A stretch of 17,357 bases of DNA, from the IMG/VR virus record IMGVR_UViG_2663762648_000006, positions 1 to 17,357 of that record; one strand, 5' to 3'. Each line of letters starts with the position of its first letter. Position 1 is the stretch's first letter. The notes below the pieces were generated by a model that was not told the DNA's origin, ran no database searches, and saw nothing but the letters and a program-made list of their open reading frames with translations. The stretch comes from a virus. Its lineage: Duplodnaviria; Heunggongvirae; Uroviricota; Caudoviricetes. Both the position numbers and the translations under genes were made by a program. Below are positions 3,450-8,401 of the stretch, piece by piece.

Positions 3450-3800
3450 TCAATTGATGCGTTCGCGCGCTGTTTTTGCTTTATGACAGGGCCAGCACAG
3501 ACTCTGCAGGTTACTGTCTGCATCCGTGCCACCATGAGCTTTCGGAATGATGTGGTCCACAGTTCTGGCTTCAACGGCTCTCCCATTGCGCAGGCAGTTC
3601 TGACACAGATGATTATCACGCTTCAGTATGCGCGCACGTATGGCATCCCATTTCGAGCCATAGCCACGCTGGTGGCGGCTCAGTCCGCGTTGATGCTGTA
3701 CCCATCCTTCGCCACGATGTTTATCGCAGTAACCAGAACTGTCTGTGGTTGTACCTGCACATCCACGCTTACGGCAGGCGCGGGGGGTTAGTGCTGGCAT
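3450..3800 (-). CDS. HNH endonuclease (packaging-associated)
   Basis: 116 aa, cysteine-rich, with an HNH-like motif (DHIIPKAHGG...CWPCH). Its position just upstream of TerS is typical of HK97-like cos phages. Confidence 0.88.
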   Translation of the reverse strand: MPALTPRACRKRGCAGTTTDSSGYCDKHRGEGWVQHQRGLSRHQRGYGSKWDAIRARILKRDNHLCQNCLRNGRAVEARTVDHIIPKAHGGTDADSNLQSLCWPCHKAKTARERIN

Positions 3801-3938: not shown

Positions 3939-4478
3939 ATGGATATTAAAGATAAAATCAATACCATTTTGTTATGTGACATTGCCATCCACCTAGGTAT
4001 CGAAACTGATATTGATCCACAGCTTGTTAAATATGCTGTGTCATCTGGTAATGATTGGGTTATCAAGGCCGAATATTCACATTTGGATGTTGACGAACCA
4101 AGTAAAGAAGATCGTGATTTTGTTACTGCTGTCTTGAATATGTATCGCGGACTTTCCAATGCTTTCAGGAAACTTAGTGATGACGAGCAAAAAGAATTAG
4201 TCCGTGACCATCATCTAAAAATACATGATGGGGCAATTCAGCTCCCAGGTTTCGACGGTAATAATGAATGCGATTACTTCAGTATCATTGAGGCATATCA
4301 GAAAATTGATCGCTTCCCCGAACAGAAACAGCCCATTGCCAATACTCATTCACGTACAGAACATCTCTATAACGCAATGCTTGATGAGTTTAAGAAAATT
4401 GACGCTGTAAATCGAAGCTGGGATTTATCGAAGGAAGAACTGGCATCCATTCTTTCCACAGCTCCACGCAGTTTCTAA
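3939..4478 (+). CDS. YfbU-family (UPF0304-like) protein; moron antisense to the late operon
   Basis: 179-aa ORF with AGAGGG 8 nt upstream. Local GC is visibly lower than the flanks. Blocks resemble my recollection of E. coli YfbU (NMYRGLS, GFDG, C-terminal LSKEEL...IL). A stem-loop follows the stop. Confidence 0.65.
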   Translation: MDIKDKINTILLCDIAIHLGIETDIDPQLVKYAVSSGNDWVIKAEYSHLDVDEPSKEDRDFVTAVLNMYRGLSNAFRKLSDDEQKELVRDHHLKIHDGAIQLPGFDGNNECDYFSIIEAYQKIDRFPEQKQPIANTHSRTEHLYNAMLDEFKKIDAVNRSWDLSKEELASILSTAPRSF

Positions 4479-4905: not shown

Positions 4906-5388
4906 TTATCTGAGACATTGCTCACGAATGTATAGCTGTGCCCCTTCCAGTTGCTTCTGCATCGTCATCAACCGTTCTCTGAGGGTGAAATAATCCCGTT
5001 CAGCGGTGTCTGCCAGTCTGGGGCTGGTTGCATTATCCACGCTGGTGGGTCCGGTGGCTTCACGCACGGCTGCGGAGCAACTGGCATTGACCCGCAGGCG
5101 CTTACGACCAGCGGCAACATCAGCGCGCAGAGTTTCATTTTCAGCTTTCGCATTGGCTAATTCTCTCGAGTACTTTGCATCGAGCGCAGCAACATCACGC
5201 TGACGCTGCTGCATGTCAGCGATGGTGGCGGTCAGCTGCTTCAGCTCACTGACTTTTTTATCACGCTGTTCTTTGTAGGTGATGGCGTTATCACGGTAAT
5301 GATTGACCGCCCACGACAGGCAGACGATGATGCAGATAACCAGAGCATAAATAATCGCGGCGACTCTGCTCACTGATCTATTCCCCAA
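4906..5388 (-). CDS. Rz-like i-spanin
   Basis: 160 aa with an N-terminal TM segment and a charged coiled-coil-like body, immediately after the endolysin, with an embedded +1-frame lipoprotein ORF. Confidence 0.88.
4968..5153 (-). CDS. Rz1-like o-spanin lipoprotein, embedded in Rz
   Basis: 61 aa with a lipobox (LVVSAC) and a proline-rich body, wholly inside the Rz gene in another frame. Confidence 0.82.
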
Positions 5389-5903
5389 CAGGCTAATGCG
5401 CTTTCTTGGTCACGACGAATAACCTGTCCATAGCAGTTATTTGAACGTATGCGGCAATCGCGCCCACCATCTTTTATCCACCAGCGAATCGCCTCGCATG
5501 CGCCCTTACGATCACCAGCATTCAGCCGCTTATAAAACGTCGATGGAAAACACTTACCGGGGCCAATGTTATAGGGACAAAATGACGCGATACCCGCTTT
5601 TTGTGGTTCGGTCAGTGGTACTTTAATATTGCGCTCCACCCATGCCAGCGCCTTATCACGCTCAATGGCGTTGACCTGGTCGCATTTTTCCTTCGACAGT
5701 TTCATACCGGGAAAAACGGGTTTTCCATCCACCATCGTGGCACCCCGACAGATGGTCCAGATGCCGGAACCATCGCGGTATGCCGTTGTGTGGTTACCTT
5801 CTTTTTCATCCAGAAACTGGTCGAGAATATCAGGCGCGGGCGCACCGACGGCAATCAGTGCCAGAACGGCAGCCGACAGGCCGTATCTGATTTTTGCGTT
5901 CAT
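5370..5903 (-). CDS. Endolysin, lysozyme-type with N-terminal signal-anchor-release (SAR) domain
   Basis: 177 aa. A hydrophobic Gly/Ala-rich N-terminus is followed by a T4-lysozyme-like Glu/Asp/Thr motif ([20 protein letters not shown]). It pairs with a pinholin as in phage 21. Confidence 0.88.
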
Positions 5904-5966
5904 GGATATTTATCAGGATTTATCGGTTTCTGCCCACGGACAGGTTTATCTGTTCCGGTCAGTGAC

Positions 5967-6317
5967 TTAAGGTTGTGATTCCGGAGGAGTCTTCAGAGAA
6001 CCAGTAATTCTTCCTGGTAGCTTTCCTTTGTAGGTTATCCACACATTCTGCGCCTCTAAAATTACGGGGCGCTTTTCCGGCGACTGCTCATCCCCTTCAC
6101 ATAACCCGGCAGCAACATCCAGGAAGACCTGTCTGATGCTCCTTCTGGCTGCTGCCTCATAAAACTCCAGCGCGGCACCTTCAACACGGTCCAGCGAGAT
6201 GTCCAGGTCAAAAATTTCACCGTCAAAGCGTTTTTTGTCCCGTAACGCTAAAGTTACCGTAACTTTATTCTCAAAATTGCGGATCCCTTTCACAATCAGT
6301 TCATAGTTTTGAGTCAT
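5967..6317 (-). CDS. Hypothetical protein inserted between holin and endolysin
   Basis: 116-aa soluble ORF with a 4-nt gap to the holin stop. It may correspond to small DUF proteins found between essQ and rrrQ in cryptic prophages, but I could not verify that. Confidence 0.55.
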   Translation of the reverse strand: MTQNYELIVKGIRNFENKVTVTLALRDKKRFDGEIFDLDISLDRVEGAALEFYEAAARRSIRQVFLDVAAGLCEGDEQSPEKRPVILEAQNVWITYKGKLPGRITGSLKTPPESQP

Positions 6318-6321
6318 TGAA

Positions 6322-6537
6322 TTACTCTCCCCGTGCAGCCTTACGCTTGTCTTCTCTGATTTTGAAGTACAGATTTGTCAGATAAGTCAGGAAGCCCAGA
6401 ACCAGACTCCCCAGTACACCAATCGCAGCCCACTGTGACGGACTGACCTGATCAAGCCACTGTAAAAACCAGTAGCCAGCACTGCCTGCGGAGGTGCCAT
6501 AGGCAATGCCCGTTGAAATTTTGTCCATGGATTTCAT
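6322..6537 (-). CDS. S: Class II holin, phage 21 S-type pinholin with dual-start motif
   Basis: 71 aa starting MKSMDK, nearly identical to my recollection of S21 (…[26 protein letters not shown]…). GGAGGTGAG precedes the start. Confidence 0.9.
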
Positions 6538-6594: not shown

Positions 6595-6622
6595 TTGAAA
6601 AGAAAAGCCCGCAAAAGCGGGC
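6595..6622 (-). terminator. Rho-independent terminator (tR'-like) between the tRNA cluster and the holin
   Basis: Minus strand reads GCCCGC-TTTT-GCGGGC followed by TTTTCTTTTC. Confidence 0.7.
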
Positions 6623-6829: not shown

Positions 6830-6904
<75 letters not shown>

Positions 6905-6907
6905 ATA

Positions 6908-6983
<76 letters not shown>

Positions 6984-6985
6984 AC

Positions 6986-7062
6986 TGGACCGCCACCGGG
7001 GACTCGAACCTCGCACACTCAACTTAAAGGGTTGACGCTCTTTCCTGATGAACTGGTGACGG
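6986..7062 (-). tRNA. Atypical tRNA-like gene (anticodon loop CCTTTAA, nominally UUU; possibly degenerate)
   Basis: 77 nt with encoded CCA and a T-loop TTCGAGT, but C at position 8, C at position 33 and a T-stem mismatch. It lies 1 nt downstream of the tRNA-Ile-like gene. Confidence 0.4.
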
Positions 7063-7063
7063 T

Positions 7064-7139
7064 TGGTGGCCCTTGCTGGATTTGAACCAGCGACCTGGCG
7101 ATTATGAGTCGCTCGCTCTCACCACTGAGCTAAAGGGCC
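7064..7139 (-). tRNA. ileZ: tRNA with CAU anticodon, tRNA-Ile2 (lysidine) type, ileZ-like
   Basis: 76-nt clean cloverleaf: acceptor GGCCCTT/AAGGGCC, anticodon loop CTCATAA, T-arm GCTGG-TTCAAAT-CCAGC, CCA. It closely resembles my recollection of E. coli ileX and of the tRNA carried by Stx-type phages. Confidence 0.8.
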
Positions 7140-7349: not shown

Positions 7350-8039
7350 TCAATCTACTTTTGCAACACTTTGCTTTGAAAATGCCGCCTTTTGTTTTGA
7401 ACGTGTTCTCATTACAAACAATAAAGCCTCACTATCCAGTCGTTGAAAAATGTGTTTCATTGCAACCCAGTGACGAGTAAATGTTTTGGACCAGTTTTTA
7501 GTTGTCACTCCCGCCAGTAATGCCAGCTCCTGGTATTCATAACCTTCCCCACCAAAAAGTTCTGCTTTTACTGCCTGCGCCGCCAGCCAGATTAATTTTT
7601 TCAGGCGTTCCTGCGTTTTCCCTGCAATTTTTCTGGTACCGGATTGAGTATTAAATTCATTCCACGCCCACTGTGTTATCGCGATCTGATATTCCCAACA
7701 AATACTCTCGCCGTAACACCACAACAACCAGGCTTTATGATGCTCTTCAAGAGACAGCAAAGCCCGCCGCCATGATGATGTCGAAAACTCAACCGGGCTG
7801 ACCAGGGCAATTGATGAGCCATTCGCCAGTGATTGTTTTCCCGGGATTGGTGGATTATCCCGCGTTATCATTTTTCCAGTCACTTCATCGCGGTACCGGA
7901 TTTTTTTTCGCCTGTAACGCCCTGTATCGAACATGGCATTCTCCTGCCAGGCTTCAAGCTGACCTTTTGTTGCCCCACTCAAATCAGCGGTGGCGATAAT
8001 GAGCTGCTCACGCACAAACTGTAAATACTGGTTATTCAT
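7350..8039 (-). CDS. Putative late-gene antiterminator (Q-like); assignment by position only
   Basis: 229 aa from the ATG at 8039, which overlaps the rusA stop (ATGA). It is the last gene before the terminator, promoter, tRNAs and lysis cassette. I do not recognise the sequence as a specific Q family. Confidence 0.45.
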   Translation of the reverse strand: MNNQYLQFVREQLIIATADLSGATKGQLEAWQENAMFDTGRYRRKKIRYRDEVTGKMITRDNPPIPGKQSLANGSSIALVSPVEFSTSSWRRALLSLEEHHKAWLLWCYGESICWEYQIAITQWAWNEFNTQSGTRKIAGKTQERLKKLIWLAAQAVKAELFGGEGYEYQELALLAGVTTKNWSKTFTRHWVAMKHIFQRLDSEALLFVMRTRSKQKAAFSKQSVAKVD

Positions 8040-8401
8040 GCGCACTCCAGTTCTGTGATTTTTATCCCCAGCCGCCCACCAGGAACGAGCTGACCGCGCA
8101 CAATATTGATTTCATCAAACTGCTCGTCGTCTATGAGTAGTCCGGCATGCGTCAGCGCATCCAGTGGTGCTTTCAGGATATTGTCCAGGTCACGACGGCG
8201 CTTATCCGGTGGCTCTGCAATAATCTTTATCGCCAGCCTTCCGGACAGGTTTAATTTCAACCGCTGCTGGCGAACAATTAGCGCCACATCATGGCGATAA
8301 CGCTTTCCGGCCTCCGAGATGAAATACGTATTGCCATGACGTCGCCAGTAGGTATTCACCGTCGGCGGGTAAGGCAAAACAAATTCTATGCGTTCAGTCA
8401 T
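8036..8401 (-). CDS. rusA: Holliday junction resolvase RusA
   Basis: 121 aa with motifs matching my recollection of RusA (PPTVNTYW, DKRRRDLDN...K...DALT). Confidence 0.88.
   Translation of the reverse strand: MTERIEFVLPYPPTVNTYWRRHGNTYFISEAGKRYRHDVALIVRQQRLKLNLSGRLAIKIIAEPPDKRRRDLDNILKAPLDALTHAGLLIDDEQFDEINIVRGQLVPGGRLGIKITELECA

Follow-up and report, generated by a model that had tools for sequence, protein, structure and literature searches.

A YdfR/DUF1327-family gene between pinholin and SAR endolysin in an Escherichia coli lambdoid prophage and its possible link to RNase E

RESULTS

The lysis cassette and its neighborhood

We analyzed a stretch of viral DNA of 17,357 nucleotides (referred to as the window here), which comes from an E. 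coli lambdoid prophage with its late genes on the minus strand. Read along this strand, the order is Q, tRNAs, a hairpin, the holin, ydfR, the endolysin, Rz/Rz1, and then the packaging genes. Between the Q antiterminator gene (positions 7350-8045, minus strand) and the holin gene lie four tRNA genes (Gly-TCC, Thr-TGT, Lys-TTT, and Met-CAT; 6830-7139, minus strand); a phage record with 99.8% identity has only three tRNAs annotated, with tRNA-Lys missing. Upstream of the holin gene, a terminator-like hairpin was picked up by consensus scan only (6607..6622, minus strand). It is GC-rich, is followed by a T run, and precedes the holin start by 70 nt, a candidate for the tR' of a Q-dependent late operon at which Q readthrough would take place.

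The holin (6322..6537, minus strand; 71 amino acids) matches PF04971 (E = 1.4e-35), named "Bacteriophage P21 holin S" in Pfam, and has the MKSM dual start and the two hydrophobic segments of an S21-type pinholin; it presumably has the sequence of the published S21 holin. The 177-amino-acid endolysin (5370..5903, minus strand) is of the RrrQ/933W-R type and matches PF00959 (E = 1.4e-24), with an E-8-D-5-T catalytic motif at residue 35. Its N terminus is Ala/Gly-rich and weakly hydrophobic (53% G+A+S in residues 8 to 24), and we class it as a SAR endolysin on the basis of its lysozyme domain, its catalytic triad, and this Gly/Ala/Ser-rich segment, whose release from the membrane is a prediction. 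The Rz i-spanin gene (4906..5388, minus strand; PF03245, E = 1.6e-49), for which a near-identical phage (ON470583) has the start annotated at 5373, contains the embedded Rz1 gene (4968-5153, minus strand; PF06085, E = 1.4e-18). These matches agree with the compact phage-21 set that the original prediction had described here. Over 1.66 kb, the lysis genes are 99.8% identical to those of Escherichia phage vB_EcoS-689R5. Beyond the cassette, the near-identical phage record has a gene for a homing endonuclease beside that of the small terminase (window 3450-3800, minus strand), as well as a 179-amino-acid hypothetical gene of opposite orientation between the lysis and packaging modules (window 3939-4478, plus strand).

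Between the holin and the endolysin lies the ydfR-family coding sequence, which runs from ATG to TAA at 5967..6317 on the minus strand and encodes 116 amino acids (13.1 kDa; pI 5.6). In a hydrophobicity scan, its maximum 19-residue Kyte-Doolittle mean was 0.69 and no transmembrane or signal segment was found, compared with 1.72 (19 residues) for the holin and 1.91 (17 residues) for the SAR segment of the endolysin. The soluble 116-amino-acid protein predicted at this position is thus present as described.

Junctions and translation start signals

The junction between the holin gene (S) and ydfR (6318..6330, minus strand) can be read directly as GGAGAG, TAA, TTCA, and then ATG. The gene starts 4 nt past the holin stop, as had been predicted, with TTCA between the TAA (6322-6324) and the ATG (6315-6317). 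GGAGAG (6325-6330), the final pair of holin sense codons, precedes the ydfR ATG by 7 nt and serves as the ydfR Shine-Dalgarno sequence from within the holin end. The motif GGAGAGTAATTCAATG, or a near variant of it, was present in every locus for which a ydfR start was parsed. Phage 933W lacks ydfR, and there the endolysin gene (R) starts 4 nt after S, using the same GGAGAG. By this comparison, ydfR appears to have been inserted between S and R and to have taken over the ribosome-binding site embedded in the holin gene. A Salmonella locus carries a 3' remnant of an S21 holin gene, including GGAGAG, between an intact PF16080 holin and ydfR (L098, 2950-2996), suggesting that ydfR moved along with its initiation region.

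On its other side, ydfR is separated from R by a spacer of 63 nt (5904..5966, minus strand), the last 23 nt of which (5904-5926) form a conserved, AU-rich R leader devoid of a Shine-Dalgarno sequence, CCGATAAATCCTGATAAATATCC, in which GATAAAT occurs twice. This leader is conserved in the ydfR-bearing loci that we read, Salmonella included, and in these loci R follows ...GATAAATCCTGATAAATATCC-ATG with no Shine-Dalgarno sequence; only K-12 deviates, with an R gene that overlaps the stop of ydfR. For comparison, the R leader was inspected in two ydfR-less cassettes only. The R-like endolysin of Lambda_ev203, different from that of the window, is presumably of the R21 type. A search for RNA structure gating R in the ydfR-R spacer gave a value that did not differ significantly from that of shuffled sequence (z = -0.13).

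A consensus scan found neither promoter-like nor terminator-like sites within S-ydfR-R, in keeping with the earlier proposal that the gene is coexpressed with the lysis genes. By this result, ydfR does not fit the classical moron type, in which a gene has a promoter and a terminator to itself and is active in the lysogen; ydfR has neither and is oriented with the late transcript. It resembles lambdoid morons such as bor (after Rz) and lom (in the tail region) in being an optional insert at a late-operon junction with a mosaic distribution.

Family identity and canonical position

The original prediction had named a DUF1327/YdfR-like protein as a guess to be checked against Pfam, and this guess proved right: the window protein matches PF07041 (DUF1327) with an E value of 7.5e-43 and 145.1 bits (cutoff, 25) over model positions 1 to 92 of 93. 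It also matches PHROG families 406 (E = 5e-68) and 2091, both at about 1e-68, while a search of NCBIfam with it returned no family. Proteins that are 100% identical are annotated as "putative YdfR family protein" in phage vB_EcoS-611R1 and as "YdfR family protein" in RefSeq, and the latter annotation is already present in the 99.8% identical phage record. It is nearly certain that the window ORF is a true late gene of the E. coli lambdoid prophage and a member of the YdfR/DUF1327 family. Among 33 distinct alleles of its N-terminal domain (N-domain), the median dN/dS was 0.26, with 0.24 to 0.32 for the C-terminal module, showing that selection acts on the protein, beyond the DNA alone.

The gene had been singled out as an unusual extra gene in the cassette, a view that does not hold, since it occupies the canonical position of its family, as seen in K-12 Qin, O157 prophages, YYZ-2008, and all 88 of the 88 related loci with both flanks, in which an S21-type holin is followed by ydfR and then by a 177-amino-acid lysozyme. 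A typical PF07041 gene belongs to a lambdoid late operon, in which an S21-type holin directly precedes it and a PF00959 lysozyme follows; the window fits this pattern, and divergent members differ. In K-12 Qin, YdfR (P76160, b1555) belongs to the same family, the order is essQ(S)-ydfR-rrrQ(R)-rzpQ, and the 4-nt S/ydfR junction is the same; in contrast to the 63-nt spacer of the window, the stop of ydfR and the start of rrrQ overlap in K-12. The gene, the family to which it belongs, and its placement between holin and endolysin are thus already documented, in Pfam and RefSeq as well as on the map of K-12 and in the record of the nearly identical phage. Its occurrence at this place is an ordinary finding, namely, a common accessory late gene in its usual position.

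Distribution of the family

Of the 5426 complete E. coli genomes searched, 4349 had a YdfR match, and a single genome could contain as many as 10 copies. Among phage records, 101 carried YdfR compared with 438 carrying an S21-type holin. The two were unevenly related across Shiga-toxin phages, as the records with YdfR versus those with the S21-type holin numbered 41 versus 47 for Stx1a, 15 versus 17 for Stx2c, and 2 versus 124 for Stx2a. These results lend good support to the view of ydfR as an accessory gene, carried in the late operon as a moron-like passenger, and no core lysis component.

The family is narrow, with 65 representative clusters retrieved by phmmer from 1.84 billion proteins. 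All of these clusters are DUF1327 apart from P0162, a 3128-amino-acid repeat protein (E = 5e-8) with six weak stretches of the kind ...LDLSQAEIVGSELEFF..., which we judged to be an artifact of summing over repeats. A profile of the N-domain alone retrieved 325 proteins, and the listed hits with a named source were from Escherichia/Shigella, except for one Salmonella member; a one-genome-per-species GTDB set held 8 loci. The ydfR family is almost confined to Escherichia and Shigella. Two of the GTDB loci are in metagenome-assembled genomes labeled Veillonella parvula and Bacillota (L087 and L089). They are typical E. coli S-ydfR-R cassettes, the proteins of L087 having 99 to 100% identity to K-12 proteins, and both are most likely misbinned Escherichia contigs. 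Many copies are rearranged: in L035 (3349-4590), a duplicated partial R-Rz block is joined to the C-terminal module described below, P0064 is a YdfR-Rz1 fusion that arose via deletion, and P0072 and P0093 have internal duplications of the N-domain. Such copies are consistent with decay in cryptic prophages and with recombination among coresident lysis cassettes.

A conserved N-domain with exchangeable C-terminal tails

The N-domain (codons 1 to 73; 6099..6317, minus strand) was confidently predicted by AlphaFold2 to consist of three β-strands and a helix, β(5-14)-β(18-27)-β(34-43)-α(50-73), with the same β-β-β-α topology in two independent runs (block pLDDT of 80 to 93 and 66 to 84). Residues 1 to 73 are conserved across all family members and include an invariant acidic motif, E46-G47...E51-x-Y53-E54, as well as a conserved K/R patch at positions 58, 59, and 62. 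The N-domain is mildly acidic (pI 5.3) and 81% identical to residues 1 to 73 of K-12 YdfR.

It is followed by a linker, EGDEQSPEKRP, and a segment referred to as module B, VILEAQNVWITYKGKLPGRITGSLKTPP (together codons 74 to 113; 5979..6098, minus strand). Both are predicted to be disordered, with pLDDT values below 50 for the region of residues 74 to 116 in both AlphaFold2 models. Module B is nearly invariant among the alleles carrying it (40 sequences), and it probably folds on a partner. The protein ends in an allele-specific tail, ESQP plus stop (5967..5978, minus strand), located at the junction where other alleles hold extra modules or an antisense gene; the tail variants are ESQP*, KW*, LA*, EF*, and TALRSEKDD.... 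Other members have different C-terminal regions altogether, including an unrelated one in K-12, a 104-amino-acid type with "RPCSEARYTIKINSS," and forms of 176 to 183 and 268 to 287 amino acids with further modules. The C-terminal 30 to 40 residues of K-12 YdfR, EKLSEKVESYLQHQYSFKIENPANKHERPHHKYL, are reported to be helical and are unrelated to module B of the window.

We compared the window protein with several known classes. It lacks the transmembrane or SAR segment, at least one of which marks holins, antiholins, and releasin-type proteins. Nor does it show the α-β-β-β-α fold of a dsRBD with a significant structural or profile match to that domain. By sequence profile or fold, no significant similarity to any protein of solved structure was obtained, and no fold or sequence relatives with a known function were found for YdfR. 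PADLOC, which models defense and excludes antidefense, was queried with the window protein plus three longer relatives and returned no family at an E value of ≤1.

An empty site downstream of ydfR

An alignment with RefSeq locus L100, spanning the end of ydfR and the leader of R, showed that about 280 bp of that locus are absent from the window. This extra segment holds a PGAP-annotated gene of 90 amino acids on the opposite strand (phrog_2411; L100 1811-2083, minus strand), the last 35 nt of which overlap ydfR. On this alignment, the ESQP* tail and the 63-nt spacer of the window can be read as two joined flanks, that is, as an "empty-site" allele, and the O157 allele is likewise empty. A remnant of the antisense gene can be recognized in the window in the form of its last codons, IPEESSENQ* (plus strand, 5978-6007), which survive because they overlap the conserved end of ydfR.

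Small genes of opposite strand (phrog_2411, phrog_2572, and phrog_1853) recur between ydfR and R, as found in L100, L070, L071, L035, and L072, which makes this region (5904-6007 in the window) a hot spot for them. Taken over the whole family, a convergent ORF follows the DUF1327 gene in at least seven contexts (L094, L095, L096, L098/L099, L070, L071/L035/L100, and L072), and each of these ORFs matches a PHROG family of unknown function. The partner ORFs of L094, in a tail operon, and L098, in a Salmonella lysis cassette, are distant homologs (BLASTP E = 8e-5) that share phrog_6806; sequence comparison detected no mutual relationship among the other convergent partners. DUF1327 may travel as one half of a two-gene cassette, or else morons may favor its 3' flank as a landing site.

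Divergent relatives outside the lysis cassette

The most distant DUF1327 proteins (31 to 51% identity) consist of the N-domain alone or little more. Their genes are found between the tail genes I and J (L094, 3001-3506), between the tail genes M and L (L095, 449-1001), and directly after an Rz-like spanin gene (L096, 503-1328). A Salmonella member (L097 to L099) is found after a holin of the PF16080 family (L098, 3001-3548). All of these share the orientation of the late genes, and all except L097 are followed by a convergent small ORF. What DUF1327 members have in common is late expression, and lysis is no shared feature. A megablast search of phages with the tail-operon relatives gave no match; the tail protein adjoining them is closest to proteins of Serratia, Cronobacter, and Klebsiella phages (about 58 to 61%).

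DISCUSSION

Possible functions of YdfR

Our literature search yielded a single functional study of YdfR (PMC13232886). In this work, Göpel et al. (RNA Biol 2026) isolated K-12 YdfR 1-72 three times in a bacterial two-hybrid screen (PMC13232886). Full-length K-12 YdfR gave a two-hybrid signal with Rne 1-597 that was limited to one Rne construct, and it falls in the interaction class of RapZ, group II, which interacts only with constructs containing the Rne catalytic half (PMC13232886). Rne 1-598 coeluted with Strep-YdfR, and the eluate held DNase-resistant nucleic acid, for which the authors allow for a contaminating RNA binder (PMC13232886). Overproduction of K-12 YdfR altered few transcripts and left growth unaffected (PMC13232886). 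A threefold increase in the streptomycin MIC upon ydfR overexpression was reported elsewhere, with no mechanism given (PMC12924614).

The K-12 fragment that interacts with RNase E coincides with the folded N-domain. Given that this domain is 81% identical in the window, binding of a late-made cytoplasmic protein to the catalytic half of RNase E and/or to RNA is the best-supported mechanism. Almost certainly, ydfR is transcribed on the Q-dependent late mRNA, and with the end of the pinholin gene as its initiation region, the protein is made in the cytoplasm during the last phase of infection. In the mechanism we propose, its N-domain, like that of the K-12 homolog, would bind RNase E, in its catalytic N-terminal half, and/or RNA and thereby act on RNA turnover late in infection, e.g., by protecting late transcripts or host RNAs or by redirecting their decay, with a second contact coming from the variable tail. 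We put this forward tentatively, as a possibility that falls short of even odds. Such binding has been reported for K-12 YdfR only, and for the window protein we infer it; since the window tail is wholly unlike that of K-12, the behavior of the two proteins may differ. The copurification of Rne with YdfR could be bridged by RNA, and the acidic N-domain is unusual for an RNA binder, which counts against a role at RNase E or RNA, as do the single responsive Rne construct and the slight effect of overproduction on transcripts and growth.

Among known systems, RapZ is an adaptor of the RNase E N-terminal domain, and K-12 YdfR resembles it in that it, too, brings down RNA. No sequence or fold relationship was found between the two, and RapZ is a tetrameric, kinase-like protein of 284 amino acids with defined sRNA clients, whereas neither a client RNA nor an influence on cleavage is known for YdfR. 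T7 gp0.7, phiKZ Dip/gp37, and T4 Srd are small phage proteins that target the RNA decay machinery of the host, and the activity proposed here for YdfR is the same. A more elaborate form of the idea, which we regard as improbable, is that YdfR proteins are lambdoid RNase E adaptors, in which the β3-α domain would anchor on the catalytic half of RNase E and/or on RNA while swappable tails and, in many phages, overlapping convergent partners would select the RNAs to be protected or destroyed as the lytic cycle ends.

The original prediction had suggested a lysis regulator or a late-expressed antidefense gene, and as a lysis regulator YdfR would bind the basic cytoplasmic C-terminal tail of the pinholin, the N terminus of the antiholin, or the nascent SAR endolysin and shift the trigger time. 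We found no positive evidence for this role beyond the position of the gene, several of our results weaken it, and we consider it unlikely. The position is suggestive in itself, as the gene lies between S and R with an invariant junction in every Escherichia locus examined, and a soluble protein with the conserved acidic residues E46, E51, and E54 could bind the basic cytoplasmic tail of the holin. The Keio ydfR mutant also appears in the primary hit lists of a CPRG screen for envelope leakiness (PMC3879167 supplements), although the entry is an unvalidated primary hit that, as we infer, may reflect a polar effect of the kan cassette on rrrQ. Against these points, a protein devoid of transmembrane and signal segments has no access to the periplasmic endolysin, roughly 77% of the phage records with the same holin type are without YdfR, and divergent members reside in tail operons, after Rz, and in one case after a different holin family. 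Linkage between YdfR alleles and holin or endolysin alleles, taken as a sign of physical interaction, gave no signal: identical YdfR proteins occur with clearly different holins, the same allele being found with holins only 79% identical to each other. Dedicated lysis regulators such as the S21-71 antiholin, the Mu releasin gp25, P1 LydB, and T4 RI act at or in the membrane or in the periplasm and are mostly membrane anchored. YdfR is like them in being encoded in the lysis cassette and coexpressed with holin and endolysin, but it has no hydrophobic segment and is optional in S21-type cassettes.

We considered two further explanations. DUF1327 could be paired with the downstream antisense gene as a two-gene accessory cassette or an antidefense or counter-factor, of which the window copy would be an orphan. 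The recurrence of a convergent ORF in at least seven contexts, each with a PHROG family, points in this direction, as do the 35-nt overlap of the PGAP-annotated L100 ORF with ydfR and the distant homology of the L094 and L098 partners despite their unrelated contexts. Yet most partners are unrelated in sequence, which fits a generic hot spot for morons, like that of bor after Rz; partnerless alleles (the window, K-12, O157, and many others) are still under purifying selection; and PADLOC gave no match. These results make a paired function doubtful, with a rather small chance of being correct. Alternatively, the insertion may matter in cis, by uncoupling R from the holin ribosome-binding site and lowering or retiming endolysin synthesis, with the protein being dispensable, in effect a selfish ORFan. 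R of 933W does use GGAGAG, ydfR-bearing loci have the leader without a Shine-Dalgarno sequence or the K-12-type overlap, and the family is narrow (65 clusters) and often decayed or rearranged; the link between leader and ydfR, however, rests on the two ydfR-less cassettes. The dN/dS of about 0.26 in both domains and the near-invariant module B indicate selection on the protein, and a copy is retained in the 4349 E. coli genomes counted above, leaving a mainly cis effect very improbable.

Significance

We return to RNase E and RNA binding as the preferred reading. If this lead holds in infection, YdfR would add a modulator of host RNA decay to the lambdoid late program, and if the lysis-timing idea were true instead, a soluble regulator would be added to the pinholin/SAR-endolysin pathway. 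Should the adaptor reading be correct, YdfR would, to our knowledge, be the first protein of temperate coliphages described to modulate RNase E, one with a copy in about 80% of E. coli genomes. The function of YdfR carries some weight because the family occurs in roughly four-fifths of the sequenced E. coli genomes, often in multiple copies.
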